A stretch of 32,000 nucleotides of DNA from Methanothermus fervidus DSM 2088 (GTDB taxonomy: Archaea; Methanobacteriota; Methanobacteria; DSM-2088; Methanothermaceae). The position numbers and the translations under genes were made by a program. Position 1 is the first letter of the stretch. Every line of letters starts with the position of its first letter. Where the stretch lies: the NCBI GenBank assembly GCA_000166095.1, contig CP002278.1, forward strand, positions 810,001-842,000, in the 5' to 3' direction. The notes under the pieces were generated by a model that searched no databases, had not been told where the DNA came from, and saw only the letters and a program-made list of their open reading frames with translations. Positions 3,705 through 16,352 of this stretch are shown here, in pieces.

Positions 3705-5054
3705 TTAGCCACATTCTAATGCTGCACGAGTAAAGTTAGCAGCAAATTTTGGATAAGATGCAACATGTATATGCATATAATTTGCAAGAGTGTTATTTGA
3801 TATTAATCCATCTTTCGAATTAACAATTCCTCTACCTCTCATGATTCTAAATGCAAATTTTGGATTGCCAGTTATCTTTATTTTAGAATAATGAAATTCA
3901 TGTCCTTTTATAATTTCTCCTTTCGAACTAATAATGTTGTTATTCTCAACTTTTGCTATAACATAACTTAATCCCTGAACGTTTTTAGTCATTTTTGCTA
4001 TATGTGGATAAATTCCACACATTTTAGCACTATCTAATGCCTTCATAAGGTACATAAGGCCTCCACATTCAGCATATATGGGTCTACCATCCATATGAAA
4101 TTTTTTAATTGATTTACGCATTGATATATTTCTTTCTAATTCTTTACTAAATATCTCTGGATATCCTCCCCCTATATATATGCCATCCACATCAGGAATC
4201 ATCTCATCTTCGCAAGGACTAAACTTTATTATTTTAGCATTGTTATCCTCTAAAGCCTCAATATTTTCTTGATAATAGAAAGTAAATGCCTTATCATATG
4301 CAAGACCTATCTTCACTCTTTTCTTATTTTCCTTAACCCATAGAGATTCTCTTGAAGATGGTATCTTACCAGCATCTTTCATTATTTCCTTTAGCATGTC
4401 AATATCAATGTTTTCTTCAACAACCTTAGCCCATCTATCGATGTATTCAATGATTTTTTTATTCTCCACCGCAGGTATTAAGCCCAAATGTCTCTGCTTC
4501 ACTGTTAATTCTTTTTTTCTTGGAATACCTCCAAGAACTTTCACGTCTGTAAGTGACTCTATAGCTTTTTTTGTTTTTAAATAATGTCTACGATTTTTAA
4601 TAAAATTTAATATTACACCCTCTATTTTTACTCTTGGATCTAATTTTTCAAAACCAAGAATTATAGCTGCAGCACTTTTCACCAAACTTCTTGTATTCAT
4701 TATTAACACAACAGGAGAATTAAGTGCCAATGCTATCGAAGATGTTGATCCAACGTCACTAATTGGACTTATACCTTCATAAAGACCTCTCACTCCCTCA
4801 ATTATACCGGCTTTTGCATTTGATATTTCTAAACCTCTACAAAATGCTTCCCTAATTTGATCATCTGACATAAAAAATGAGTCCAAATTTCTGGAAGGTA
4901 CTCCCGTGGCAAGATAGTGATAAGTTGGATCTATATAATCAGGGCCAACTTTGAAGGGTTGAACTTTCATTTCTTTTGATAGAGCCCTCATTATACCTGT
5001 AGATATGGTTGTTTTCCCTACAGCGCTTCCGGTTCCCGCCAATACTACTCGCAT
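3705..5054 (-). CDS. Tetrapyrrole a,c-diamide synthase, CbiA/CobB/CfbB family (cobyrinate or Ni-sirohydrochlorin substrate cannot be decided from sequence alone)
   Basis: 449 aa. N-terminal P-loop [11 protein letters not shown], then [13 protein letters not shown]...NLDSF. The C-terminal glutamine amidotransferase domain has a nucleophile Cys (AECGGLMYL) and GHEFHYS. SD AGGAGG lies 6 nt upstream of the ATG. Confidence 0.85.
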
Positions 5055-5077: not shown

Positions 5078-6277
5078 TTAAGGTCCAAAATGGCCAAGTT
5101 CTGTCTGTACAATCACAGTTTTTAACCCAATGTTATTTAAAATTTCCTTTACTTCCAACATTTCATAAAAACTAGGTCTTTTTATATTTTTCCTCCTGAA
5201 CTCTGGTCTATAATCAAGTACACAAATTTGAACTTCGTCATTCATTTTGTAGATTTCGTCTCCAATTTTTTTAACTTCTTGTTTTGAGATAAGTTCCTTA
5301 TTGTAAGGAATTCCAATCCCTAAAAATACTTCATCCAAATAATTATCTATTATATATTCAACAGCTTTCCATGAAGTGTTAAGATACTTTTTTGCAATAT
5401 TTTCGTCAGCTAAACCAGTTATGTTCATAAAGGTGGAAACTTTTTTTGCCTTGATATCTATTCCAATATCAGTCATTCCAACTTCTATCAATTCATCTAT
5501 ATACTTTTTAGTTAGGATAGTTCCATTGGTATCCACATGTATATGAACATTCTCATCTTTTTCTCTAATTGATTTTATAAGTTCAATAAGCCATTTTTTA
5601 TTTAATGTACATTCTCCACCAGATATTGCTATTCTATTTACTTTATACTTGTTTTTTAAATTTAGCAATATTTCAGCAGTTTTTTGAGCTTTTAATAAAT
5701 ATCCACCAGCTGTGAATGCTATTACATGATTTTGACATTGAGGACATCTCAAATTACATCCATGCGTAAACACTACAACCTCTATAGGTCTATTGTATGA
5801 TTTGAGCCAATAAGGTGTACCAACACCGCCTACACTATGGGGGCCAAAACCACTTACAACTCTTATATCTCTTTCATTTACTTTTGTTTTTATTTTCATC
5901 CCATTTTTTAGTGGTGTACAACAAGCTAAAACTGGTTTTTTATTTACTTCAACGATACATGCATAACATGCGGCAGAATTACATGGAACAAATACTTTAT
6001 CCTCTTCTGGAAACTTCGTGAATTTTGAACAAGATTTTAAAGCATCTTTTATAGTGCCAGAAGCAATGACTTTCTCTCCATCAACAAAAACAGTCTTTTT
6101 TTCATGTTTATATTTTTCCAAAATTAATGCTTCCCTTGGACATGCAATGATGCATAAACCACAACCAATACATTTATTATTCTTAATACTGTCCTTCACA
6201 TTTCCCATAGGACATGCAACTGAAGCACAAATACCACAGTTTATACATTTTTCTGATAATAATTTTGCTATCATCAT
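5078..6277 (-). CDS. Radical SAM protein (PflA/COG1180-like core) fused to an N-terminal 2x[4Fe-4S] ferredoxin module and a second Cys-rich (2Fe-2S-like) domain
   Basis: 399 aa. [13 protein letters not shown] and [12 protein letters not shown] (residues 11-47). A Cys-rich segment [35 protein letters not shown]. Radical SAM CX3CX2C = [11 protein letters not shown] (Cys174/178/181, nt 5735-5758). ISGGECTL glycine-rich SAM-binding motif. The start lies 4 nt after the polC stop. Confidence 0.85.
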
Positions 6278-6281
6278 GAAA

Positions 6282-9200
6282 TTAAATGAAATCCATTAAT
6301 GATGTTTGTTTCAGTTTTTCGTTTTCAAACAATGATTTTATTGTAGATTCTAATAATTTAATTCTTTGCTTAACATATGGATCTAAAGGATATTCTTCCT
6401 TTAATTTAGTTGCAACATCAAGATACTTTATTACAGATCCTTTAGAAACTGTTAAAACTAAATTTCCTCCACATTCGCATTTACCAGAAAGAGGTATTCG
6501 CCTATATTTCTTATTACACGTTGTACATCTAACTTTTTGTCTTAAAAATGCCCTTACATTGCCTGCTATATCTGGAAGGAAATGAGAAACTAAAACTCTT
6601 TCAGCAGTGTCTTTATGGTCAACAGCTCTTATTTTTTTTGCCAATGATAATTGTGAATCAACTTTTTCTTCCATTTTACCTAATTTCTTATATAAGCATG
6701 TTTTTGGAGCACCGTCAATCTTCGAGGTATTATGTGAAAACCATAACTGTTTATATTGTTTGGAAGTACCAAGATGTTTTTTAACGTTGTCTATTAATTT
6801 TTCAACTTTACTAGGATCTGCATATTTCATTGTTTCATTGTAAAACTCTAATGGAAGTTCCTGCATAGTATCTATATTATGTGCTTCATCATCTATTTCT
6901 TCTGGATCTATTCTAGTTGATAATACCAGTGGTGCATCCATACTTCCTCCACGTTTTTCAGGTAAGTAATATTTGCTAAAGTTCAGTAATGCATCGAGAA
7001 GTAACATGACAGAGTCTTCATCGCCATCGCATTGGTGTGTCAAAATGTTTTCATTTATTAAAATTGTGTGGTAATTGTCAACATTTAATGAATAAACATA
7101 GTCTTCTTTTGGTTTTATGATTTCTATCTTCTTTACTTTTAAGATCTTTCCATCCTTTTCTTCAGTATTTGAAATTTTTAATATTGCTTCATTTCCATTA
7201 TATTCATATTTACCAAATATACCAAGCTTTGATATTAACAATAAATCTATTTCCTCTAGCAATTCTTTCTTACCTCTAATTCTTAAATCATCGTCTGTAG
7301 CTATTTTAATCATCTCATGAATTTTCTCTTTTGACAAGTTAAATACAAAATCAGGAAGTTTATTGTTTCTCAAATCTTTAAGGAATGGTTGTGAAGAATC
7401 TAAAATTAATTTACCATTATTTTTATCATAATTGTTACCAAAAACTTTTTTAACATATTTTTCTGCAGAAGAAGGTAAAGTTACTTTATCTCCACAATTT
7501 TCACCCTCTCTCAAATAATATCCAATTATTTTTACCATTGAATCCAACTTTGGATCATCATAATTCTTTTCATTTAATCTAACTCTTGGTATAAAAATTG
7601 AATCTCCTTTTTGAACTTCAAATGCTCTTTTTTCTTTAAATTTTCCATCTTCATAAACAATTACAGGATGATCAATGGTTGTTTCAAAACTCCTATTATC
7701 CTCAAGTATGATTTTAATAAGATGATCTGTTGTAGGAACTTTTAAAACCTCTTTTATATCACTTAAAACAACTTTTTTCTTGTTTTTATCAAAAGAATAT
7801 GCTTTTATATTATGGTCTGTCCGATCTCTAACATATGCCTTATTCTCATTCTTTTCATTGTAAAATTTCTCATATAACTCGTCAATCCTCATCTTGGAGA
7901 TTTTACCATCTATTTGCACAAGTATTTTTGAATCTCCTGGGAAACAATTTCTTCTTTTTGCAGCATGGAAATATGGATGTGCATAACATGCGGAAGCCTT
8001 TGTAAATCCAATGATTCTACCCACAATTGCAGCAGACGTATGGGGTGCTAAAGCAGCTACAAGATGTCCAACAAGATCCTCCTTTTTCTTTACATTGTAA
8101 AATCTTGGTAGGCCATAATATTTTTCCAACAAATCATCTACAAAATTTGCAACCTTCATAAGATATGATGCACAATCTTCAGAAATTATAATGTCTTGAA
8201 CTTTCAATTCTAAAATCTGATCATCACTCACAAGATCTCTACCATAACAATCTTTTTTATATCCTAACTCTTTCAACTTTTCTATGTCAACTCCTATTTC
8301 CTTTGGTGTGAAATGTGTTAATGGAAGGTTTGTTGAATCATGCCGGATTGTTCCATCTTTAAACGTTGATACTCCATTTTTAGCTCTTAATATTCCTTTT
8401 TCAAGTGCTTCTGGAAGTTTCTTACTTGATATCATTCCTTCTACGCCTTTAATTTCGTCTAATCCACGAGTGTTGGTGTTTTTGTATGCCCTTTCAAGCA
8501 TGGATTTTATATTTATTTTTCTTTTCTTTGGATTGAGTAATTCTGTTTTTGACTTACAATATGGGCATACAGACCTAAATGAATTTATCTTACATTTTTT
8601 ACATCTTCTACGTGAAATCTCAACAGTTATATTTACTTTTTTTGCAGCCTCTACAATATTTCTTCTGTTACCTCCACTTTTACCTATTGGGAATAATACA
8701 TGTGGAGCTGGTCTCATTCTCCTTTCTTTACTTTTTTCAGGTCTTCCTATTCTTCCTCCAATATATGTAGGAGCTTTAGGCATTATTTTTACTGGGGAAA
8801 TCTTATTTAAAGCTTTTAAAGGATCATCTAAGCTTTCATCTAATGGTTTTCTTAAGGTATTTAGTAATGCATAAGCATGATCATCCTTTATTATCACCTT
8901 TGAGTCTTTTATATGGTGAGGAACTCCCAATTTTTCTAATATTTTCTTTTCATCGCTTATTTTAAGACGTAAGCCTTTACCACTTATGTATTTAGATGAT
9001 CTCAACCAATTGTATAATCTATTTAATTCTTTGACACTCACGTCATGGTAAAAGTATGTATATTTAGGATGAAGAGGAACATTATATTTCTTTGATATTT
9101 CAAACGCTTCTTTAGCATTTTTGGGTTCTATATCTTTATTAAGAAGTTTTTTCCACCATTCTTCACACCATGCAGAAGGCATAAAAGGGTGGTTGTTATT

Positions 9201-10406
9201 TATAAATTCACCAGGAGCTACTAGGATGTCACCTAAAAACAATATTTCATCTATTTCATTTTTAATTTTCCTGGCTTCTTCTCTACTTTTAACTTTTATG
9301 ACATCTCCATTCTTTAATTTAACAATAGGTCCTTCAACACTATCTACAGGAACAACACAATTTCCTTTTCCCGGTCTTTCAATTTTCATCTGAGTTCCTA
9401 CTGCTGTAAATTCCAATATTTCCATTGTAGCAGGGTGTAATCCCATGGCTGCCAAACCAGTATTCCTTGCCCTTCCATATCTTAATCTAAAACCACCTTT
9501 TTTTGAAGGATAAGCCAAAACTGGTCTTCCACCAATTACATCTTTTAAATATTTATCATTGGGTTTTACATTGACTTCTTCTTCATCTTCCTCTACTTTT
9601 AAAAATTTTTTTAACCATTTCCAATTATCTAAATTTAATTTTTCAGCATATTTTACAACCTTTGAAGCCTTTTGTATTAATCCTTCTACAAGCACTAATA
9701 AGGCTCCACCACGTAAATGATTTGTTTCGACTCTCTCAAGGTTACGATATGATACTTCAATTTTGTCTGTTGGTTCACCTGTTATCTCTACAGGTATATT
9801 ACTAGCAACTAATCTCACTTCATCTGGAGATGGAGAATATTGAAAATTAGTTACTTCTGATTCATATAATTCAACTTCTTCCACATACCTCTCTATTTCT
9901 TCTTCAATTGGTTTATAAACATCTAAACCTAATTCTTTACGGATATAATCAGCTATAAGTACAGAAAGTGCTGATGCTGTCCCACCAGCACTACGAATAG
10001 GTCCTGCATAATATACTGATAAATATTTAGTACCATCATAATTATCTTTAATTTTAACTTTAGCAATTCCTTCAATAGGGGCTGCCACAACACCTTCAGT
10101 AAGCACTGCCATAGAAGTTCTTAAAGCCTGTTCAGCCATTTTTTCCTTGTTATTACCTTTTGATACAATTTTTTTGGCTATAGTGAATGCTATGTTTTCT
10201 CTACTTATGCCTTTTTCTTCTAGCTTTTTTATTTCTTTTGATATACCTTTGGGACCTACAATACCTTCTACTCTTTCTGCTAAATCTTTAGCTAATGGAA
10301 TTTCAGGCGTTGGACTAGGATCAAGTCCTTTTGATCTTGCTGTTTCGGCAATTTTATATACTTTTTTAATTTCTTTTTCTAAAGAATCAAAATACTCGTT
10401 TACCAT
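6282..10406 (-). CDS. polC: DNA polymerase II (PolD) large subunit DP2, intein-containing precursor
   Basis: The N-terminus MVNEYFDSLEKEIKKVYKIAETARSKGLDP matches the DP2 family. Zn-finger-like CKKCKINSFRSVCPYC and CTTCNKKY...CECGG. Catalytic AAKRRN/CDGDED motif interrupted by an in-frame intein. The ORF-track start 10421 is TTG. ATG at 10406 is preceded by GAGGGAT plus a 6-nt spacer, so it is preferred. Precursor 1374 aa, predicted spliced product 1069 aa. Confidence 0.97.
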   Translation of the reverse strand: MVNEYFDSLEKEIKKVYKIAETARSKGLDPSPTPEIPLAKDLAERVEGIVGPKGISKEIKKLEEKGISRENIAFTIAKKIVSKGNNKEKMAEQALRTSMAVLTEGVVAAPIEGIAKVKIKDNYDGTKYLSVYYAGPIRSAGGTASALSVLIADYIRKELGLDVYKPIEEEIERYVEEVELYESEVTNFQYSPSPDEVRLVASNIPVEITGEPTDKIEVSYRNLERVETNHLRGGALLVLVEGLIQKASKVVKYAEKLNLDNWKWLKKFLKVEEDEEEVNVKPNDKYLKDVIGGRPVLAYPSKKGGFRLRYGRARNTGLAAMGLHPATMEILEFTAVGTQMKIERPGKGNCVVPVDSVEGPIVKLKNGDVIKVKSREEARKIKNEIDEILFLGDILVAPGEFINNNHPFMPSAWCEEWWKKLLNKDIEPKNAKEAFEISKKYNVPLHPKYTYFYHDVSVKELNRLYNWLRSSKYISGKGLRLKISDEKKILEKLGVPHHIKDSKVIIKDDHAYALLNTLRKPLDESLDDPLKALNKISPVKIMPKAPTYIGGRIGRPEKSKERRMRPAPHVLFPIGKSGGNRRNIVEAAKKVNITVEISRRRCKKCKINSFRSVCPYCKSKTELLNPKKRKINIKSMLERAYKNTNTRGLDEIKGVEGMISSKKLPEALEKGILRAKNGVSTFKDGTIRHDSTNLPLTHFTPKEIGVDIEKLKELGYKKDCYGRDLVSDDQILELKVQDIIISEDCASYLMKVANFVDDLLEKYYGLPRFYNVKKKEDLVGHLVAALAPHTSAAIVGRIIGFTKASACYAHPYFHAAKRRNCFPGDSKILVQIDGKISKMRIDELYEKFYNEKNENKAYVRDRTDHNIKAYSFDKNKKKVVLSDIKEVLKVPTTDHLIKIILEDNRSFETTIDHPVIVYEDGKFKEKRAFEVQKGDSIFIPRVRLNEKNYDDPKLDSMVKIIGYYLREGENCGDKVTLPSSAEKYVKKVFGNNYDKNNGKLILDSSQPFLKDLRNNKLPDFVFNLSKEKIHEMIKIATDDDLRIRGKKELLEEIDLLLISKLGIFGKYEYNGNEAILKISNTEEKDGKILKVKKIEIIKPKEDYVYSLNVDNYHTILINENILTHQCDGDEDSVMLLLDALLNFSKYYLPEKRGGSMDAPLVLSTRIDPEEIDDEAHNIDTMQELPLEFYNETMKYADPSKVEKLIDNVKKHLGTSKQYKQLWFSHNTSKIDGAPKTCLYKKLGKMEEKVDSQLSLAKKIRAVDHKDTAERVLVSHFLPDIAGNVRAFLRQKVRCTTCNKKYRRIPLSGKCECGGNLVLTVSKGSVIKYLDVATKLKEEYPLDPYVKQRIKLLESTIKSLFENEKLKQTSLMDFI
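7032..7946 (-). mobile_element. Intein (305 aa) with a LAGLIDADG-type homing endonuclease domain, inserted in the DP2 catalytic motif; C-terminal residue Gln
   Basis: Junctions were read directly. N-extein ...HAAKRRN | CFPGDSKILVQIDG (block A, Cys1 codon at 7944-7946). Block B TTIDHPVIV (TxxH). Block F/G YVYSLNVDNYHTILINENILTHQ | CDGDED (Gln codon 7032-7034, +1 Cys 7029-7031). The central region has IIGYYLREGEN (LAGLIDADG motif 1). In frame, 915 nt. Confidence 0.92.
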
Positions 10407-10450
10407 GAATTTATCCCTCAATGATAAATTTTGTCCTTTTGTATCATCTA

Positions 10451-10473
10451 AAAAAACATTTATTATGTTTTTT
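10451..10473. repeat. Perfect 9-bp inverted repeat AAAAAACAT-ttatt-ATGTTTTTT in the divergent intergenic region
   Basis: Read directly from the sequence: arms 10451-10459 and 10465-10473, 5-nt spacer. It overlaps the candidate polC TATA region. The low-complexity arms reduce its significance. Confidence 0.5.
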
Positions 10474-10479
10474 ATTATA
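10458..10479 (-). promoter_or_regulatory. Candidate TATA-box region for the polC-led minus-strand gene array
   Basis: The minus strand reads CTATAATAAAAAACATAATAAATG, with two TATA-like octamers about 55-70 nt upstream of ATG 10406. That would give a roughly 30-nt or longer leader containing the SD. AT-rich background makes the assignment weak. Confidence 0.3.
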
Positions 10480-10510
10480 GTTTTTTCTTAAAAAATAAAA
10501 TTAAAATAAT

Positions 10511-10529
10511 TTTGAAAAAAGTTATATAC
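10511..10529 (+). promoter_or_regulatory. Candidate BRE/TATA promoter for the CobN-like / ExbB-like genes
   Basis: Purine-rich GAAAAAAG followed by TTATATAC (10522-10529). The expected TSS about 24-27 nt downstream (near 10552) gives a roughly 30-nt leader carrying SD GGAGGTGA (10570-10577), 4 nt before TTG 10582. Confidence 0.45.
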
Positions 10530-10581
10530 AACTTTACAATACCAATGAAATAAAAGTAATAACAAAAAAGGAGGTGAAAAG

Positions 10582-13500
10582 TTGAGGAAGTTTTTAGTGA
10601 TTGCATTGTTTGCAGTGTTTTTATTGATTTCAGGAGCTTTTGCTGAAAATGTGACTATGACTGATAAAGATGGTAATTTTATTTTTGAAAATGTAACACA
10701 AAAACCTCACATACTTTGGATTGAAAATAAAGACTTTCAAGTAAATAATATATGTGCAGAGAAAATTGTGTTAAGATTAGAACCTGATAAAAGCAATAGA
10801 AGTATAGTAGGTCCTATAGATGTATATGCAGAATTTAAGGGAACAAAAATACAAGGAAAAGTTTGTTTAAATGGTAAAGGTGTCCCAAACATACATGTCT
10901 ATGATCCAGAAGAAATAAATTTGGTAGTGTTTGGTGCTAGACAATCAATGATTCAAGCTGCTTATCAACTTTGTAAAGATTATCCCGAAATTAAACCTAT
11001 TTTTATTGGAGACCAAAATATTACAGAAACTGAAATAAAGAATTTGATAGAAAAAGCAGATATTATTTTCATAGGCATGACAAGTACTTATTGGACAATA
11101 AAAGGAATTTATGACAAAAATCCTAGTATTTTCAGTGGTAAAACTGTTTGGTCAGGCATTATGTATGCTGAAAGCATGAATCTAACAAAAATCAGAGGCG
11201 AAACTGTTTTTAAAGGTTTTACATTAAGTCAACTACAAAACATCTATGATGGAATTCACGCTGCCAAAGATCAATTTAATTATATACTGAATTTAACAAG
11301 GCAGTACCCAAATGACCATCCAATTCAATTCTGGTTATATTTAAGACTTGTATACAACAATGCGTGTCCAGATGATTACTACAATGGTTTTCTATACATG
11401 GTGTGGACACATACAAGAAATGATAAATACAAGAAATTTTTACCAATTGAAAAATTGAAAAAGCCTGATTACTTTATTTACAGAGATGGATCATTGTATA
11501 CTAGTTTTGATGATTACAAAAAATTTATAGATCCTTCAAAACCAACAGTTGGAATTGTAGTGATGTATTCAACTTATAGTGATGGAAATATATACATAGC
11601 TGAAGAAATAGCGAAAAAACTTGAATCAAAGGGTTTAAATACAATAATAGTTGTTGGAAAATATTATCAACCAATATTTAAAGGCATACAAGAATATTTC
11701 TGGGATTCCACAAAAAATAAAAGCAGAGTAGATTTAATAATTTCGATGTGTGCTTTCACAATTGGAGGAGCTACTGGCAGTGTAAACGCAAGTGATGCAG
11801 CCAAATTTTTTGAAAAACTTAATGTACCTGTATTATTAGCAATAATATCTTCTGATGTAACAAAGGAAGAATGGTATATATCAGAAAAAGGTTTAAGTTT
11901 TACAGCAGTTTATCGTTGGCTTGCAATGCCTGAACTACAAGGTGTATCAGAGCCAATTATCGTTGCTCTTCCCAAAATTGTTAGGGATTCACTAACAGGT
12001 GCAATTGTTAAAAGACCAGAAATTTTACCAGAGAGAATAAATAAATTAGTTGAAAGGGCATGCAATTGGATTAAATTAAGATATAAACCAAATTCTGAAA
12101 AAAAGATAGCATTTATCATTTATAACCATGAGGCAGGTAAAGCAAACATAGGTGCATCTCTCCTAAATGTTCCAGAAACATTGATAGAAATTTTGAAAAG
12201 ATTAAAACAGGAAGGCTACAATGTAAGTGAAATTCCAAACAATGCTACTGAACTTGTCAACATTTTACTTAAGAAAGCTATAAATGTGGCTACTTGGGCA
12301 CCTGGTGAACTAGAAAAATTAGCTAAGTATGCAATACTTTGGGATGCTAACGAATATGTAAATTGGTTTAAAAAACTTGATCCTCTAGCACAAAAATGGA
12401 TGGTTGAAGGTCCTGTAGGGTACTTAGAAGCAATAATTAAAAAAGCTATCGAAGTAAATGAGAGAAAAGAAATATTTAGAAGAATAGAACAATGGAAGGA
12501 AGAAACTGGAAACGCAATAAAAAATGTACTAAAAGATGATCAAAATAAACTACAAAAAGCCTTGTCACTTCTAGATCAAATAGTGCAATGTGCAAATCAG
12601 TTGCTTAACAACACAGACAATGAAACCTGGAACAAATTTTATGAGTTAAAAAAGGAATTACAAAAGATGGAGATTGATGGACTAAGTGGATGGGGAGAAC
12701 CACCTGGTAACAGAATGGTTATTGAGAAAGATGGCAAAAAATACATTGTAATTCCTGGAGTAATATTTGGAAATATATTCATTGGTCCTGAACCATTGGC
12801 AGGCTATATAGGGGACGAAGCTGCTTTATACCATTGTCAAGTACTTCCAAGACCACACCAATTTTTAGCATTTTATGCATGGCTTGAAAATGTTTTCAAA
12901 GCAGACGCAGAAATACATGTTGGTAAACATGCTAAATATGAGTGGAGTGTCCTTAGACAAACAGCATTAGGTCCCGATGACACACCTGACATTTGTGTTG
13001 GAAATGTGCCTCAACCCTACATCTATATAGTAGATGATATAGGTGAAGGTTTACAAGCAAAAAGAAGAGGATCAGCAATAATTGTTGACCATAGAGTTCC
13101 TGCATTAAGAAATTCAAACCTTTACGGTAATTTAACAGAATTAGCAAACCTAATTAATCAATATAGACAAAGCAGTCCAGAAAATAAAGATTTAAGATCA
13201 AACATAATTTCAATTTTGAAACAAGAAGTTAAAAAACGTGGAATAGATAAAGAACTTGACATAAACCTTGATAACATCACTGACGATGAACTAGTGGAAG
13301 CTGTAGATGATTATCTATCAGATATGACAAGTATGTATATGTACTATGGATTAACAACGTTTGGTAGGCCTTTCAACGATGAAGAACTCTCATATATGGT
13401 ATCAGCAATGCTTTCCATTGATGGAACAAATTATACAGCGCTGCCAAATTTAATTGGAAAAATTAAAGGCATAAATTATGATAAAGCTACAGCACTAATA

Positions 13501-15567
13501 AAAGATGAAATTAACAATCAATGTATAGAAATTTGTAAAAAGTTAATTTCAGGAAAATCTGTAGACGAACTAGCGAGGGAATTAACTAATAATCAAACCT
13601 TACAAGAGGAAATAATAAAAACTTTAAAAGCAGGTCTAAAATATCTTGATCTTTTCAAACAGTGTCCAATATGTGAAATGAACAATCTTATCAATTGCTT
13701 GAATGGCGGATTTGTACCACCAAGGATTGGAAATGATCCTCTAAGAAATCCAGATTCATTGCCAACAGGTGCCAATTTTTATGGTATTGATCCATCTTTA
13801 GTTCCTACGAGAGCTGCATACCAATTAGGTTCAAAGCTGGCAAACATGACAATCCAAAAATTAGGAAAAGTACCAGAGAAAATTGGAATGATATTATTCG
13901 CTGTAGAAACTCAAAGAGATCAGGGAGCAAATATCGCATTTGTACTTTATATGATGGGTGTAAAACCAATTTATAATCCTGCAGGTAGAGTACAAGGTGT
14001 TGAAGCAATTCCACTTTCTGAATTAGGAAGACCCAGAGTTGACGTAATAATACAGAGCAGCGGATTATTTAGAGATCTCTTCAGCTATTCTGTTGTCAAT
14101 GTTTTAGATATTGGAGCTAGAGTAGCATTGGCAGCATCGTATAACACCATTATTAAGAAATATCCTGAACTCCAGGCTGAATTAGATAAGGCAATGAAAC
14201 CATTAATAGAAAGAAATATTCTTAAAAAAGGAGATGACCCAATAGAAATGAATTATATTGCAAAACATTGGATAGAACTCGTCAAGAAAGGATATGATGG
14301 GGATTTGGCTATATCAAGAGTTTTCACAGAGCCTGTTGGTGATTATGGAACAAGAATAGCTGAAGCTGTAGAACAGGCAAGCACTTGGAAAGATAGAGAC
14401 AAACTTGCCACCCTTTACTTAACAAGAATGTGCCATGTTTACTCAAACACTAACTGGGGTATTGCAAATAGAAATCTATTTGAAGATTTATTAAAAGGAA
14501 CTGAAGCTGTATTCCACACTCGTACAAGTAATGCCTATGGAATTGTAGATAATGATGATTGGGCCCAATATCTAGGTGGTCTTTCATTAGCTGTAGAAAA
14601 AGTTAATGGATGGAAAGCACCTGCAGCTTATATACTTGAATATAGTAATCCTGCTAGACCATGTGTAGAACCACTTTCATATGCTATAGGTAGGGAAATT
14701 AGGGCAAGATATCTCAACCCAGAATGGATTAAAGGAATGATGAAAGAAGGATATGCCGGAGCTAGACAGTTTAGTGAAAAATTTGTTTCATATGTTTGGT
14801 TATGGGATGCAGTTACTCCACATGCAATCCACGACGAACAATGGAATGAAATTGTCAATGTTTACGTCAAAGACATCTACAACCTAGGCCTTAAACAATT
14901 CTTCAACACCCATAACCCCTGGGCAAGACAATCATTAATAGCTACGGCATTAGTGGCAGCATACAAAGGATTCTGGAAAGCAGATAGAGAAACTTTAACT
15001 TTCCTAGCAAGAGAATACATTGAAAGTGTCAATAAGTATGGAGTTACATGCTGCCATCACACATGTGGCTATATCGACCTAAACAACTTCATAGTTAGAA
15101 TATCAAATATGCCACTTCCATCATTACAAAAATTTGCAGCTGCATTTGCAGAAGCTACTGGAGTTAAGTTATCAATCCCTGGAATTCCAACATCCATTCC
15201 AGGAGCACCATCACAACTAGGAGCTCCAACTGCATTAGGAAGAGTAGGAATTGGAACTGCAGCAACAAGGGGAGTTTCACCAGGAATTTCAGGTCCTTCA
15301 GGTAGAGTTGGTGGTGAAATTGGTACAAGAGGAGCAGCTCAAGCTGCTGGAGCTGCAAGTAAATCCTCATCAGAATCAGGTGCTACAGGTAAAGCAGGAA
15401 TTACAGGTGCTGCAGCAGGTAAAGGAGCAGGAAAAGCATATGAGATTACACCAGTGTCTAAAGGAATTGGAAGTCCATCATCAGTGCCATTCGCAGGAAT
15501 AATCGGAGTTATAATATTGATTGCATTAATAGCAGCAGGATATCTATTGAGGAGGCCTGAGCGATAG
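10582..15567 (+). CDS. Exported, membrane-anchored CobN / Mg-chelatase-H-family protein (1661 aa)
   Basis: TTG start with a strong SD. N-terminal Sec-type signal peptide MRKFLVIALFAVFLLISGAFA|EN. A small beta-sandwich-like N-domain (TDKDGNFIFENV). CobN family core, e.g. GNIFIGPEP...YHCQVLPRPHQFLAFYAWLENVFKADAEIHVGKHAKYEW...GNVPQPYIYIVDDIGEGLQAKRRGSAIIVDH (about nt 12770-13110). G/A/S/P-rich low-complexity stalk (about 15166-15480). C-terminal TM helix FAGIIGVIILIALIAAGYLL plus basic tail RRPER. Confidence 0.9.
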   Translation: MRKFLVIALFAVFLLISGAFAENVTMTDKDGNFIFENVTQKPHILWIENKDFQVNNICAEKIVLRLEPDKSNRSIVGPIDVYAEFKGTKIQGKVCLNGKGVPNIHVYDPEEINLVVFGARQSMIQAAYQLCKDYPEIKPIFIGDQNITETEIKNLIEKADIIFIGMTSTYWTIKGIYDKNPSIFSGKTVWSGIMYAESMNLTKIRGETVFKGFTLSQLQNIYDGIHAAKDQFNYILNLTRQYPNDHPIQFWLYLRLVYNNACPDDYYNGFLYMVWTHTRNDKYKKFLPIEKLKKPDYFIYRDGSLYTSFDDYKKFIDPSKPTVGIVVMYSTYSDGNIYIAEEIAKKLESKGLNTIIVVGKYYQPIFKGIQEYFWDSTKNKSRVDLIISMCAFTIGGATGSVNASDAAKFFEKLNVPVLLAIISSDVTKEEWYISEKGLSFTAVYRWLAMPELQGVSEPIIVALPKIVRDSLTGAIVKRPEILPERINKLVERACNWIKLRYKPNSEKKIAFIIYNHEAGKANIGASLLNVPETLIEILKRLKQEGYNVSEIPNNATELVNILLKKAINVATWAPGELEKLAKYAILWDANEYVNWFKKLDPLAQKWMVEGPVGYLEAIIKKAIEVNERKEIFRRIEQWKEETGNAIKNVLKDDQNKLQKALSLLDQIVQCANQLLNNTDNETWNKFYELKKELQKMEIDGLSGWGEPPGNRMVIEKDGKKYIVIPGVIFGNIFIGPEPLAGYIGDEAALYHCQVLPRPHQFLAFYAWLENVFKADAEIHVGKHAKYEWSVLRQTALGPDDTPDICVGNVPQPYIYIVDDIGEGLQAKRRGSAIIVDHRVPALRNSNLYGNLTELANLINQYRQSSPENKDLRSNIISILKQEVKKRGIDKELDINLDNITDDELVEAVDDYLSDMTSMYMYYGLTTFGRPFNDEELSYMVSAMLSIDGTNYTALPNLIGKIKGINYDKATALIKDEINNQCIEICKKLISGKSVDELARELTNNQTLQEEIIKTLKAGLKYLDLFKQCPICEMNNLINCLNGGFVPPRIGNDPLRNPDSLPTGANFYGIDPSLVPTRAAYQLGSKLANMTIQKLGKVPEKIGMILFAVETQRDQGANIAFVLYMMGVKPIYNPAGRVQGVEAIPLSELGRPRVDVIIQSSGLFRDLFSYSVVNVLDIGARVALAASYNTIIKKYPELQAELDKAMKPLIERNILKKGDDPIEMNYIAKHWIELVKKGYDGDLAISRVFTEPVGDYGTRIAEAVEQASTWKDRDKLATLYLTRMCHVYSNTNWGIANRNLFEDLLKGTEAVFHTRTSNAYGIVDNDDWAQYLGGLSLAVEKVNGWKAPAAYILEYSNPARPCVEPLSYAIGREIRARYLNPEWIKGMMKEGYAGARQFSEKFVSYVWLWDAVTPHAIHDEQWNEIVNVYVKDIYNLGLKQFFNTHNPWARQSLIATALVAAYKGFWKADRETLTFLAREYIESVNKYGVTCCHHTCGYIDLNNFIVRISNMPLPSLQKFAAAFAEATGVKLSIPGIPTSIPGAPSQLGAPTALGRVGIGTAATRGVSPGISGPSGRVGGEIGTRGAAQAAGAASKSSSESGATGKAGITGAAAGKGAGKAYEITPVSKGIGSPSSVPFAGIIGVIILIALIAAGYLLRRPER

Positions 15568-15605
15568 TCTTTTATTTTTCATTTTAAAAAGAAGGGGGTG
15601 ATAAA

Positions 15606-16259
15606 TTGCCAGCAGTCCCAGGATCAGAAGCACTCCAAGGAATTATGCATGTAGTTTCACAAAGCCTCCTAATCCCAGCAATAGTAACATTGCTGGCATT
15701 TGTTGCTTATAGTGTAGTTGCACTTGGAGGATTGATTGCTGAATATGTTGGAAGGGTTAGAGTTGATGTAGATGAAATAAAGGAAGCCATATACAACATC
15801 TCAAATCCAGGGGATCCAAAGGAGATAATAGAGATAATAAATAATTCAAAGCTCCCAGAGAGGCAAAAAGAAATATTAACAGATATTGCAAACACAGAGG
15901 ACTTAGATTCAAGGACAAGAGAAGCACTTGCAAGGAGATATGTTGAAGGAGAAGAACTGAAAGCCATGAAATCTGTTGAAATAACAGATTCAATAACAAG
16001 GCTTGGTCCACAGGTAGGACTCCTCGGAACTTTAATTCCAATAGGTCCTGGATTAGTTGCTTTGGGAGCCGGAGACATAACTCAGCTAGCAAATCACTTC
16101 TTAGTTGCTTTTGATGCAGCAATACTTGGACTTGCTTCAAGTGCAATCTCTTTCTTTGTATCAAAGGTTAGGAAAAGATGGTTTGAGGAATATCTGGTTA
16201 ACTTGGAAACTCTGGCTGAGGCTATATTGGAGGTGATGGAACAACCATCCATAAAATAA
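15606..16259 (+). CDS. MotA/TolQ/ExbB-family proton-channel protein
   Basis: 217 aa. TTG start preceded by GGGGGTGAT plus a 3-nt spacer. Three-TM layout: TM1 at residues about 20-45, a soluble loop, then TM2/TM3. Family-like motifs QVGLLGTLIPIG (compare GLFGTVWGI of ExbB/TolQ) and FLVAFDAAILGLASSAISFF (compare PGIAEALxxTxxGL), with Asp170 (nt 16113-16115) at the position of the conserved TM3 acidic residue. Confidence 0.8.
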   Translation: MPAVPGSEALQGIMHVVSQSLLIPAIVTLLAFVAYSVVALGGLIAEYVGRVRVDVDEIKEAIYNISNPGDPKEIIEIINNSKLPERQKEILTDIANTEDLDSRTREALARRYVEGEELKAMKSVEITDSITRLGPQVGLLGTLIPIGPGLVALGAGDITQLANHFLVAFDAAILGLASSAISFFVSKVRKRWFEEYLVNLETLAEAILEVMEQPSIK

Positions 16260-16310
16260 TTTTTTTCAGCAAATTTTTTTATTGAACCCTTATTTTTAGT
16301 TTAATTTTTT
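16260..16310 (+). terminator. Oligo-T tracts: probable archaeal intrinsic termination zone after the ExbB-like gene
   Basis: T7 at 16260-16266 immediately after the TAA stop, T7 at 16274-16280, T5 at 16293-16297 and T6 at 16305-16310. Archaeal RNA polymerase terminates at such T-runs. Confidence 0.5.
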
Positions 16311-16321
16311 GAACCATAAAC

Positions 16322-16329
16322 TTTATAAA
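16322..16329 (+). promoter_or_regulatory. TATA box (TTTATAAA) for the SPOUT gene / ribosomal protein cluster; predicts a leaderless mRNA
   Basis: TTTATAAA ends 24 nt before ATG 16353, and there is no SD between them. Archaeal TSSs lie about 24-27 nt downstream of the TATA centre, which places the TSS at or next to the ATG. Confidence 0.55.
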
Positions 16330-16352
16330 TTAGTTTCAACAAAATTTTTTGA

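Follow-up and report, generated by a model that had tools for sequence, protein, structure and literature searches.

A candidate extracytoplasmic metal-chelate module in Methanothermus fervidus: an exported CobN-like protein beside a copied ExbB-family stator gene

Introduction

The closest described relatives of the system analysed here belong to the bacterial hmu operon. HmuS, described in 2025, is a membrane-bound, periplasm-facing protein that takes Fe(II) out of heme and needs neither ATP nor an AAA+ partner, in a reaction that is NADH-dependent in vitro (PMC12583661); besides a signal peptide it has membrane helices at the termini (PMC13227078). In the operon hmuS is followed by hmuT, coding for a "putative permease", hmuU, coding for an ExbB homologue, and hmuV, coding for a DUF2149 protein (PMC11681262, PMC10434189), and the U/V motor of this bacterial system had been taken to energise the outer-membrane receptor (PMC12583661). 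Here we describe a locus of the archaeon Methanothermus fervidus DSM 2088, located in a window of 32,000 nucleotides (contig CP002278.1, positions 810,001 to 842,000 of the forward strand; coordinates below are those of the window), in which a giant CobN-like protein is encoded directly upstream of an ExbB/TolQ/MotA-like protein (10582-16259). A first-pass annotation of this DNA had imagined a surface machine, energised by the proton-motive force, for metals (Ni/Co) or corrinoid/tetrapyrrole cofactors and knew of no characterised pair of this kind; metal extraction from a tetrapyrrole outside the cytoplasm has been experimentally proven for the homologue HmuS (PMC12583661), and the supposed novelty of the pair does not stand, as hmuS-hmuU-hmuV of Bacteroidota form the same triad. 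The pairing of HmuS with HmuU and HmuV is already known, and what is new is its archaeal form, with a CobN-type active site, another permease and no outer-membrane parts.

Methanogens have an exceptional demand for nickel (F430, hydrogenases, CODH/ACS) and for cobalt (corrinoid methyltransferases). The identification of CfbA has superseded an earlier proposal that MTH673, the CobN-like protein of Methanothermobacter, annotated there as magnesium chelatase / CobN, might be the nickel chelatase of F430 synthesis. That proposal was made by Kaster et al. in 2011 (PMC3087415). In methanogens B12 is made anaerobically, with chelatases of the CbiX type (PMC3087415). Our comparative analysis points to an extracytoplasmic, ATP-independent module for metal (de)chelation and uptake, probably of Ni or Co, that would be coupled to a proton-driven motor, and we put the probability of this reading at roughly 55%.

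Results

The exported CobN-like protein

The features assigned to the gene and its product are the following.

10582-15567, forward strand: CobN/ChlH/HmuS-family protein ADP77647.1, TTG start, 1661 aa, exact match to the M. fervidus protein
10582-10644, forward strand: predicted signal peptide, residues 1-21, MRKFLVIALFAVFLLISGAFA with E following the cleavage site; basic n-region, hydrophobic core and A-F-A cleavage-type motif
11830-15102, forward strand: chelatase body, residues ~417-1507, alignable to HmuS, ChlH and CobN
12916-12930, forward strand: H779-V-G-K-H783 motif, aligned to HmuS HFGTH (H534/H538), equivalent to CobN H554
13042-13068, forward strand: G-E822-G-LQAKRR motif, E822 aligned to HmuS
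14548-14580, forward strand: V-D-N-D1325-D1326-W-A-Q1329-Y-L-G-G, CobN-type motif, from alignments to CobN 9uk9/9fpc, HmuS 9d26 and ChlH
15127-15456, forward strand: low-complexity Gly/Ala/Ser/Thr/Pro stalk, residues ~1516-1625, from composition
15487-15564, forward strand: predicted C-terminal membrane helix and basic tail (…VPFAGIIGVIILIALIAAGYLLRRPER), from hydropathy, with a conserved K-A-Y-E-I motif before the helix

The CobN/Mg-chelatase-H core claimed in the first-pass annotation was recovered by the Pfam family CobN-Mg_chel, which matches the 1661-aa protein at 940.6 bits (cut-off 24.5). In the ranking of PDB entries HmuS (9d26) came first (2.6e-132, 446 bits), followed by ChlH (3.7e-124) and CobN (1.1e-107). 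Phmmer aligned HmuS 9d26 to the query in three stretches (query residues 417-597, 674-945 and 990-1507), and the two proteins share 35% identity over the C-terminal half. None of the NCBIfam CobN/BchH equivalog cut-offs was reached, the best score being 785.5 bits for NF004645 (cut-off 1619), with 576 for TIGR02257 (cut-off 822); the current annotation of the protein is magnesium chelatase / CobN. Over nearly its full length it is ~37-38% identical to the Methanothermobacter CobN-like protein of the MTH673 family that precedes DUF2162, and by this comparison it is the M. fervidus member of the archaeal exported class-I chelatase homologues, the MTH673 family. The CarboxypepD_reg domain, significant at the N-terminus of homologues, was not significant in the window protein (E 0.15). 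A similarity search with the full 1661-aa query returned 9 matches, its word index having probably been swamped by the low-complexity stalk.

Signal peptide and topology were called by hydropathy and motif heuristics together with comparison of orthologues. The protein contains two hydrophobic segments only, residues 4-22 and 1638-1656, with Kyte-Doolittle values of 2.44 and 2.69, respectively, and the second is followed by the basic tail RRPER. The 110 residues of the stalk comprise A 23, G 23, S 11, T 9 and P 8 (~42% Ala+Gly). The C-terminal pattern 'YE[VI] … helix … GY[FL][RK]' recurs in archaeal orthologues, and both the signal peptide and the C-terminal anchor are kept in essentially all full-length orthologues adjoining the module, so that hydropathy and conservation agree with the originally proposed order of signal peptide, stalk, single membrane helix and basic tail. 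The count of 17 N-x-S/T sequons was reproduced, and it is higher than the Asn-rich background, the worry attached to it, accounts for, because only 0.55% of composition-preserving shuffles reach 17 (9.3 +/- 2.7 in the shuffles, ~1.8-fold enrichment). The CobN-like protein is probably N-glycosylated. Its anchor (15487-15564) weakly resembles the C-terminal helix of PDGLE-domain proteins (e.g., contig L003, 12035-12337) with an insignificant Pfam E of 0.35, and the shared G-x-G-Y … basic tail may reflect helix composition only.

Metal-site motifs

The superfamily-wide HxGxH motif is present in the window protein, and H783 aligns to HmuS H538, which is essential for heme turnover (PMC12583661). 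E822 is the likely counterpart of CobN E593 because of its spacing (39 residues after the His) and the conservation of the motif, an equivalence drawn from these two features and not from an alignment to CobN. In the second motif D1325-D1326 … Q1329 align to D1100-D1101 … Q1104 of CobN 9uk9, and roles have been described for the metal-site residues of CobN, with D1100 among the proposed Co(II)-site residues (10.64898/2026.07.21.739949). The CobN motif reads LLDSD1100DYYQFEGG and the HmuS motif LSLD1208H1209VYE1212FMGG; the window motif VDNDDWAQYLGG is of the CobN type, with Asp at the position of HmuS His1209 and Gln at that of Glu1212. The authors of the HmuS work consider LSLDHxxEFMGG diagnostic of the HmuS family and His1209 the second axial ligand (PMC12583661), and this family motif is not found in the window protein. 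Among 45 archaeal homologues compared, neither the second His nor the Glu varies, the Asp-rich motif is nearly invariant, and His at the H1209 position occurs in 0 of the 45. The Met-rich insertion of HmuS domain IV was not found in the window protein either, which has at most 6 Met per 120 residues vs 21 in B. thetaiotaomicron HmuS. By these motifs the archaeal protein retains the metal cleft of a chelatase and is no HmuS proper, the second motif placing it closer to cobalt chelatase.

The stator-like protein and its linkage to the CobN-like gene

10522-10577, forward strand: putative promoter and Shine-Dalgarno (SD) sequence of the CobN-like gene, TTATATA at 10522-10528 and SD GGAGGTGA at 10570-10577, by consensus only
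15568-15605, forward strand: 38-nt spacer, T-rich tract TCTTTTATTTTTC right after the stop codon, then SD AAGGGGGTGAT
15606-16259, forward strand: ExbB/TolQ/MotA-family protein of the HmuU subfamily, ADP77648.1, 217 aa, truncated copy of ADP76956.1 (227 aa)
16260-16280, forward strand: two T7 runs right after the stop codon of the 217-aa open reading frame (ORF), likely archaeal terminator, read from sequence
about 16323-16330, forward strand: TATA-like box TTTATAAA of the next gene, a SPOUT methyltransferase, read from sequence

The 217-aa protein matches Pfam MotA_ExbB at 31.6 bits (gathering cut-off 22.9) and has three hydrophobic helices (residues 21-39, 137-155 and 167-185); hhalign aligned it to ExbB/TolQ over helices 2-3 including the GLxGT motif (E 1.4e-4). 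Among the top 50 PDB matches of its AlphaFold model (pLDDT 74.8) in Foldseek, 48 were ExbB, TolQ and MotA/PomA chains, with ExbB at the top and TM values up to 0.61 over ~210-220 aligned columns (full length). The three-helix MotA/TolQ/ExbB-like neighbour described at first sight therefore holds by family, helix count, profile alignment and model. B. thetaiotaomicron HmuU is 30.6% identical to it over 193 residues, i.e., with full-length similarity (E 2e-34), both proteins carry the subfamily signature T(K/R)LGPxxGL(M/L)GTLIP(M/I)GP, and the HmuU-like subfamily comprises 672 representative clusters at 50% identity (E <= 1e-10). In helix 3 (residues 170-173) both M. fervidus stator copies read A-F-D-A-A, the family being otherwise nearly invariant in A-F-D-T-T, whose two Thr lie in the helix aligning with the ExbB Thr181 region. 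An identity as Zorya ZorA was considered and rejected, since the match (14.3 bits, E 0.0037) covered the shared channel region only.

The 38-nt gap with its own SD and no convincing promoter, reported previously, was found as described: the SD AAGGGGGTGAT lies in 15568-15605, and the spacer appears too short for a standard TATA/BRE promoter. Upstream, the TATA-like TTATATA lies ~55 nt before the start of the CobN-like gene in the 160-nt AT-rich region between this gene and the divergent polD. The two genes appear to form a compact bicistronic unit and are probably co-transcribed, and the oligo-T tract of the spacer could act as a leaky archaeal terminator. The Rfam scan of the window revealed no riboswitch or other RNA family, and a sigma-70 promoter scan stayed at shuffle background, this model being inapplicable to archaea.

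The conserved four-gene cluster in relatives

A profile of the MotA-like protein was run over species-representative genomes and revealed at least 80 loci in Methanobacterium, Methanobrevibacter and allies, which were annotated with HMMs built from seed proteins; the counts below refer to the 80 loci listed, which did not extend to M. fervidus. For distant HmuU-like representatives the contigs were mostly too short to show gene context. The nearest relatives of the 217-aa protein, from Methanothermobacter and Methanobacterium, are encoded in the order CobN-like (1588-1643 aa), DUF2162, MotA_ExbB, DUF2149. The MotA-like gene is followed by DUF2149 in 79/80 loci, the exception being cut by a contig end, and preceded by DUF2162 in 64/80, 16/80 being without DUF2162. 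In 36 of these 64 a CobN-like gene stands directly before DUF2162, 52-583 nt upstream, and 44/80 loci have no CobN-like gene within the covered sequence. The neighbourhood survey proposed in the first-pass annotation thus upheld the genomic link of the two families, with DUF2162 between them, and did not uphold their direct adjacency, which was found in 0/80 loci. In the M. marburgensis genome CP001710 (contig L001, 4142-9070) the CobN-like gene is split into three ORFs of 195, 849 and 604 aa and is intact in a sister genome (L002, 1643 aa); Kaster et al. list three locus tags for the M. marburgensis gene, in agreement with the split (PMC3087415).

DUF2162 is a polytopic membrane protein with the motif APCPCC in a predicted membrane helix in 39/40 CobN-adjacent cases. 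In soft-metal P1B-type ATPases, metal binding is marked by CPC/CPx motifs. The extended motif APCPCCFG (L005, 65-775; homologues in L001-L087) is more variable when the gene is not CobN-adjacent. The literature searched contained no mention of DUF2162, and tblastn of DUF2162 against plasmids returned no match. The one helix of DUF2149 proteins follows the pattern N-x-V-D-x-M-x-V-L, with P, N, D, M and V invariant (the Asp in 83 sequences), and hhalign sets this helix on the ExbD/TolR helix near the essential Asp (ExbD D25 region). In 14 of the loci the module is flanked by genes for CbiM and a PDGLE-domain protein, components of Ni/Co ECF-type transporters, and just upstream of the module in Methanothermobacter lie a nicotianamine-synthase gene and the gene for a ~960-aa FmdE-domain protein. 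In 12 loci FmdE-domain proteins occupy the CobN position. The FmdE-domain proteins beside the DUF2162-MotA-DUF2149 triad are of ~1000 aa, one with a weak match to a Shr-like heme-binding domain, and giant exported neighbours of the triad were seen on L001 (1-3957), L054 (5565-8681), L025 (11118-18773) and L177. The motor may serve several surface clients.

Comparison with known systems

For a gene-by-gene comparison with HmuSTUV we used locus L098, 100% identical to B. thetaiotaomicron. In both systems a protein of the CobN/ChlH fold carries a signal or anchor at the N-terminus and a membrane helix with a basic tail at the C-terminus, and it is extracytoplasmic and without an AAA+ partner; in both (for the archaeal cluster) this protein is co-operonic with an HmuU-type ExbB homologue and a DUF2149 protein, and a 4-6-helix membrane protein of about 235 aa lies between S and U (HmuT, or DUF2162 in archaea). 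HmuU and HmuV match the same Pfam families as their archaeal counterparts, HmuV being a DUF2149 protein 27.7% identical to that of M. fervidus (E 1.6e-5). A one-to-one equivalence of all four genes was ruled out by the unrelated HmuT and DUF2162. By sequence, the archaeal cluster shares three of the four inner-membrane hmu components and has a different polytopic membrane protein. Compared with hmuYRSTUV, it lacks the HmuY hemophore and the HmuR TonB-dependent receptor, as would be anticipated where there is no outer membrane, and no TonB receptor genes were seen in the archaeal clusters examined. The archaeal protein differs from HmuS by its long Gly/Ala stalk and by an additional beta-sandwich-like region at the N-terminus; the HmuS heme ligands Met79 and His254 lie at the head/neck interface, whereas the N-terminal ~415 residues of the window protein are unalignable to HmuS by sequence. 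In M. fervidus, furthermore, the genes are spread over two loci, with the U homologue, present in duplicate, beside the CobN-like gene and the V homologue elsewhere.

With CobN of CobNST (PDB 9uk9, 7c6o) the window protein shares the Pfam family, the equivalents of H554, E593 and D1100 and the D-x-D-D-aromatic-x-Q-aromatic-x-G-G motif, but it is exported, membrane-anchored and about 400 residues longer, with no cobS or cobT nearby and no AAA+ partner gene in the 32-kb window. The 5:2 motors ExbB-ExbD(-TonB) and TolQ-TolR(-TolA) resemble the module in the three-helix ExbB fold with GLxGT in helix 2, in a single helix with an invariant Asp in D-x-M-x-V-L context (DUF2149 for ExbD/TolR) and in a possible client, the CobN-like protein, whose single membrane helix is joined to a long flexible linker. 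They differ in that archaea have no outer membrane, TonB or TolA, that the periplasmic part of DUF2149 is unrelated to ExbD by Pfam, that the candidate client helix is C-terminal and not N-terminal, and that the window locus is missing an ExbD-like gene; no ExbD/TolR/MotB-type partner gene was found in the window, and DUF2162 and DUF2149 are likewise absent there. A further counterpart is MTH673-MTH670 of Methanothermobacter, which has a CobN-like protein with the same signal peptide and anchor and the same order of DUF2162 (MTH672 family), MotA-like, DUF2149 and hisA/F genes as a second M. fervidus locus. There the four genes are contiguous, whereas in M. fervidus the CobN-like gene has moved beside a ribosomal-protein cluster and a stator copy.

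Origin of the gene pair by duplication

15597-16240, forward strand: 644-bp segment with 100% identity (blastn vs contigs L005, L006 and L088) to the second-locus MotA-like cistron

Exact-sequence look-ups placed four consecutive genes of the reference genome at the second locus: ADP76954 (HisA/F), ADP76955 (DUF2149), ADP76956 (MotA-like) and ADP76957 (DUF2162). It is a canonical DUF2162-MotA-DUF2149 operon with a hisA/F neighbour as in Methanothermobacter, and its DUF2149 gene is the third, ExbD-like or DUF2149-like, component that the first-pass annotation had suggested looking for elsewhere. The 217-aa protein shares a 90% cluster with ADP76956.1, with 212/213 residues identical. The direct CobN-MotA adjacency, peculiar to M. 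fervidus among the loci compared, results from a recent copy of this 644-bp segment. The left edge of the repeat falls on the DUF2162 stop codon and the MotA SD (GGTGATAAATTG), and its right edge stops 2 nt short of the DUF2149 ATG (…GGAGGTGATGGA); GGTGAT occurs at both edges, the copy spanning from one ribosome-binding site to the next, and the flanks of the two copies are unrelated. The last ~14 residues, a tail not conserved in the family, are replaced in the 217-aa copy by a unique C-terminus (…EVMEQPSIK), and all conserved residues are kept.

As a true two-copy repeat would produce, independent read assemblies break 30 nt into it; they end there from the DUF2162 side, and one such contig was found in 19 samples. 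In the 219 nt upstream of the second-locus DUF2162 on a read-assembly contig a hairpin is followed by a T-run, and no CobN-type anchor was found in these 219 nt. The short read-assembly contigs L006 (1-719) and L007 (1-1041, vs window 15196-16240) join the 3' end of the CobN-like gene via the repeat to DUF2149-hisA/F, a join that is not in the reference genome and may reflect chimeras across the repeat or a strain with CobN-MotA-DUF2149. Where it codes for the stalk, L007 has 13 mismatches to the window, and it is identical across the repeat.

Neighbouring genes in the window

The divergent gene on the left (6282-10421, reverse strand) codes for PolD DP2, the large subunit of DNA polymerase II (1379 aa), which contains an intein at ~residues 834-1130 (Pfam Intein_splicing 50.8 bits); its junctions are …KRRN followed by CFPGDSKILV… and …ILTHQ followed by CDGDED…, with an apparent His-Gln end instead of the usual His-Asn. 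Two adjoining reverse-strand genes (3705-5054 and 5078-6277) are cfbB (Ni-sirohydrochlorin a,c-diamide synthase; NCBIfam NF033195, 652.7 bits vs cut-off 560) and a gene for a ferredoxin-fused radical-SAM protein of unknown role. The cfbB gene lies ~5.5 kb from the CobN-like gene on the opposite strand with polD between them, and the linkage is probably coincidental. At ~10400-10600 the sizeable ORFs switch strand, from reverse on the left to forward on the right, and the GC skew changes sign; the minimum of the cumulative GC skew near 10 kb could reflect divergent transcription alone or a replication-related switch.

Discussion

Proposed mechanism

By prediction, the CobN-like protein is exported via Sec, probably carries N-glycans and stays attached to the outside of the membrane through a flexible stalk and a single C-terminal helix. 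In Methanobacteriales it belongs to a conserved four-gene system together with DUF2162, an HmuU-type stator of the ExbB family and an HmuV-type DUF2149 protein; in M. fervidus this system is split, with DUF2162-MotA-DUF2149 near hisA/F and the CobN-like gene in the window with a recent stator copy. The conserved His/Glu/Asp cleft of the ectodomain might take up a metallated tetrapyrrole or another chelated metal, which would then be removed or exchanged without ATP, as HmuS does with heme iron. The freed soft metal, most plausibly Ni or Co, could be imported via DUF2162 or the neighbouring CbiM-type transporters. We consider Ni or Co likelier than Fe because of the CobN-type motif, the transporter neighbours and the physiology of methanogens. 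The proton motor of ExbB/ExbD type would give the mechanical or gating work that AAA+ subunits give to cytoplasmic chelatases, and this work might reach the CobN-like protein through its stalk and conserved C-terminal helix, the stalk resembling a tether of the TonB/TolA type with reversed polarity.

The S-U-V triad is retained in archaea, although these lack both an outer membrane and TonB receptors, which argues, short of proof, that the client of the motor is the chelatase or the permease and not an outer-membrane transporter. Any particular substrate is far less certain than the overall scheme. A direct coupling of motor to chelatase is a speculative and rather doubtful part of it. The same doubt applies to its boldest form, in which the ExbB/ExbD-like motor would act on the C-terminal helix and stalk of the chelatase in place of AAA+ subunits, and the whole machine would free Ni or Co from metallotetrapyrroles, corrinoids or metallophores of the environment and pass the metal to DUF2162; if true, this would be a proton-driven extracytoplasmic dechelatase, and the role of HmuU/HmuV in the bacterial heme system would have to be redefined. 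The data described above show the identities, topological features, homologies, gene linkage and duplication; the substrate, the direction of the reaction, the client of the motor and the expression of the extra stator copy we infer.

Several observations weigh against an exported, motor-coupled metal module. Archaea lack complete hmu operons, the role of their HmuS/CobN/ChlH homologues is unclear (PMC12583661), and the archaeal members are known from sequence alone. The window protein has neither the His1209/Glu1212 pair diagnostic of HmuS nor its Met-rich insertion, and the proven chemistry of HmuS is therefore not simply transferable to it. No homology between HmuT and DUF2162 was found by Pfam, hhalign (E 0.14) or BLASTP (E > 0.7). 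The relation of DUF2149 to ExbD is suggestive, the likeness being weak and confined to the helix (hhalign E 0.005, probability 6.9%), and no Pfam ExbD match was obtained for DUF2149 at E <= 10. Many MotA-DUF2149 pairs occur without a CobN-like gene, and the motor is therefore not dedicated to the chelatase; the CobN-like gene itself, being split in M. marburgensis, seems dispensable in metal-rich laboratory culture. At the window locus the stator copy has no ExbD-like partner in cis, the oligo-T tract between the two genes is a possible transcription stop, and purifying selection on the copy cannot be assessed because it is 100% identical to the other one.

Alternative explanations

It is possible, though in our judgement unlikely, that the local pair is meaningless, the 217-aa gene having arisen neutrally when a recent rearrangement or gene conversion broke up the ancestral operon, and that the CobN-like protein, if it works, uses the components of the other locus. 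The complete DNA identity of the 644 bp between unrelated flanks, the 3'-truncation of the copy with no DUF2162 or DUF2149 beside it, the want of direct adjacency in the related loci listed (0/80), the oligo-T tract between the two genes and the GGTGAT microhomology of ribosome-binding sites at both ends, typical of illegitimate recombination, would all fit such an origin. Yet the copy is cistron-precise, with its own ribosome-binding site, an intact frame and all conserved residues, the variable tail alone having been replaced; it stands in sense orientation 38 nt behind the usual operon partner of its family, which is unlikely by chance, and the terminator-like double T7 run after it makes a tidy two-gene unit.

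We regard it as improbable that the protein is truly orthologous to HmuS and harvests heme iron by extracytoplasmic dechelation. HmuS is indeed the top-scoring solved structure (446 bits), the topology and the U/V partners are the same, and H783, corresponding to HmuS H538, is conserved. The replacement of LSLDHxxEFMGG by VDNDDWAQYLGG, with His changed to Asp and Glu to Gln and the His found in no archaeal homologue, speaks against this identity, as do the missing Met-rich insertion, the lack of hmuY and hmuR and the unrelated DUF2162 in place of HmuT. To our knowledge, Methanobacteriales have no cytochromes, and a supply of heme in an Icelandic spring of more than 80 degrees is doubtful on general grounds.

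Still less probable is that the protein has an adhesin-like or structural role at the surface or in the envelope, without catalysis, and is encoded by chance near an ExbB/DUF2149 pair that would act as a general envelope energiser like Tol-Pal. Among the loci listed, the triad or MotA-DUF2149 also occurs beside Big_3_5/DUF3344/beta-helix proteins (49 loci) and FmdE-domain proteins (12), and DUF2162 is missing from 16/80 loci and a CobN-like gene from the covered sequence of 44/80. However, the cleft residues (second His, Glu and Asp-rich motif) are invariant or nearly so in the 45 archaeal homologues, which therefore favours a retained ligand or metal chemistry, and the APCPCC permease is nearly perfectly conserved specifically when CobN-adjacent.

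A classical cytoplasmic class-I chelatase subunit (F430 nickel chelatase or B12 CobN) whose N-terminal hydrophobic segment is no signal peptide, as the magnesium chelatase / CobN annotation, the nickel-chelatase suggestion of Kaster et al. for MTH673 cited above and a cfbB gene 5.5 kb away in the window might recommend, is hardly credible in view of the signal peptide, the C-terminal anchor and the sequon enrichment, the NCBIfam CobN/BchH equivalog scores all below their cut-offs, the lack of an AAA+ partner encoded in the window, the membrane proteins that are its module partners, and the established insertion of Ni into the F430 precursor by the small chelatase CfbA.

Implications

How methanogens scavenge Ni and Co from sulfidic habitats is only partly known, and the archaeal module proposed here, an extracytoplasmic metal (de)chelation and uptake system, bears on this question. 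A recognisable core of the hmu system is found in archaea, where exported homologues of Methanobacteriales are linked to HmuU and HmuV homologues and to a permease with a Cys motif. Our analysis hence addresses the role of the archaeal HmuS homologues, which the HmuS paper explicitly left open (PMC12583661), and, given that the archaea have no outer-membrane receptor, their module may as well inform the role of the ExbB-like motor in the bacterial system.

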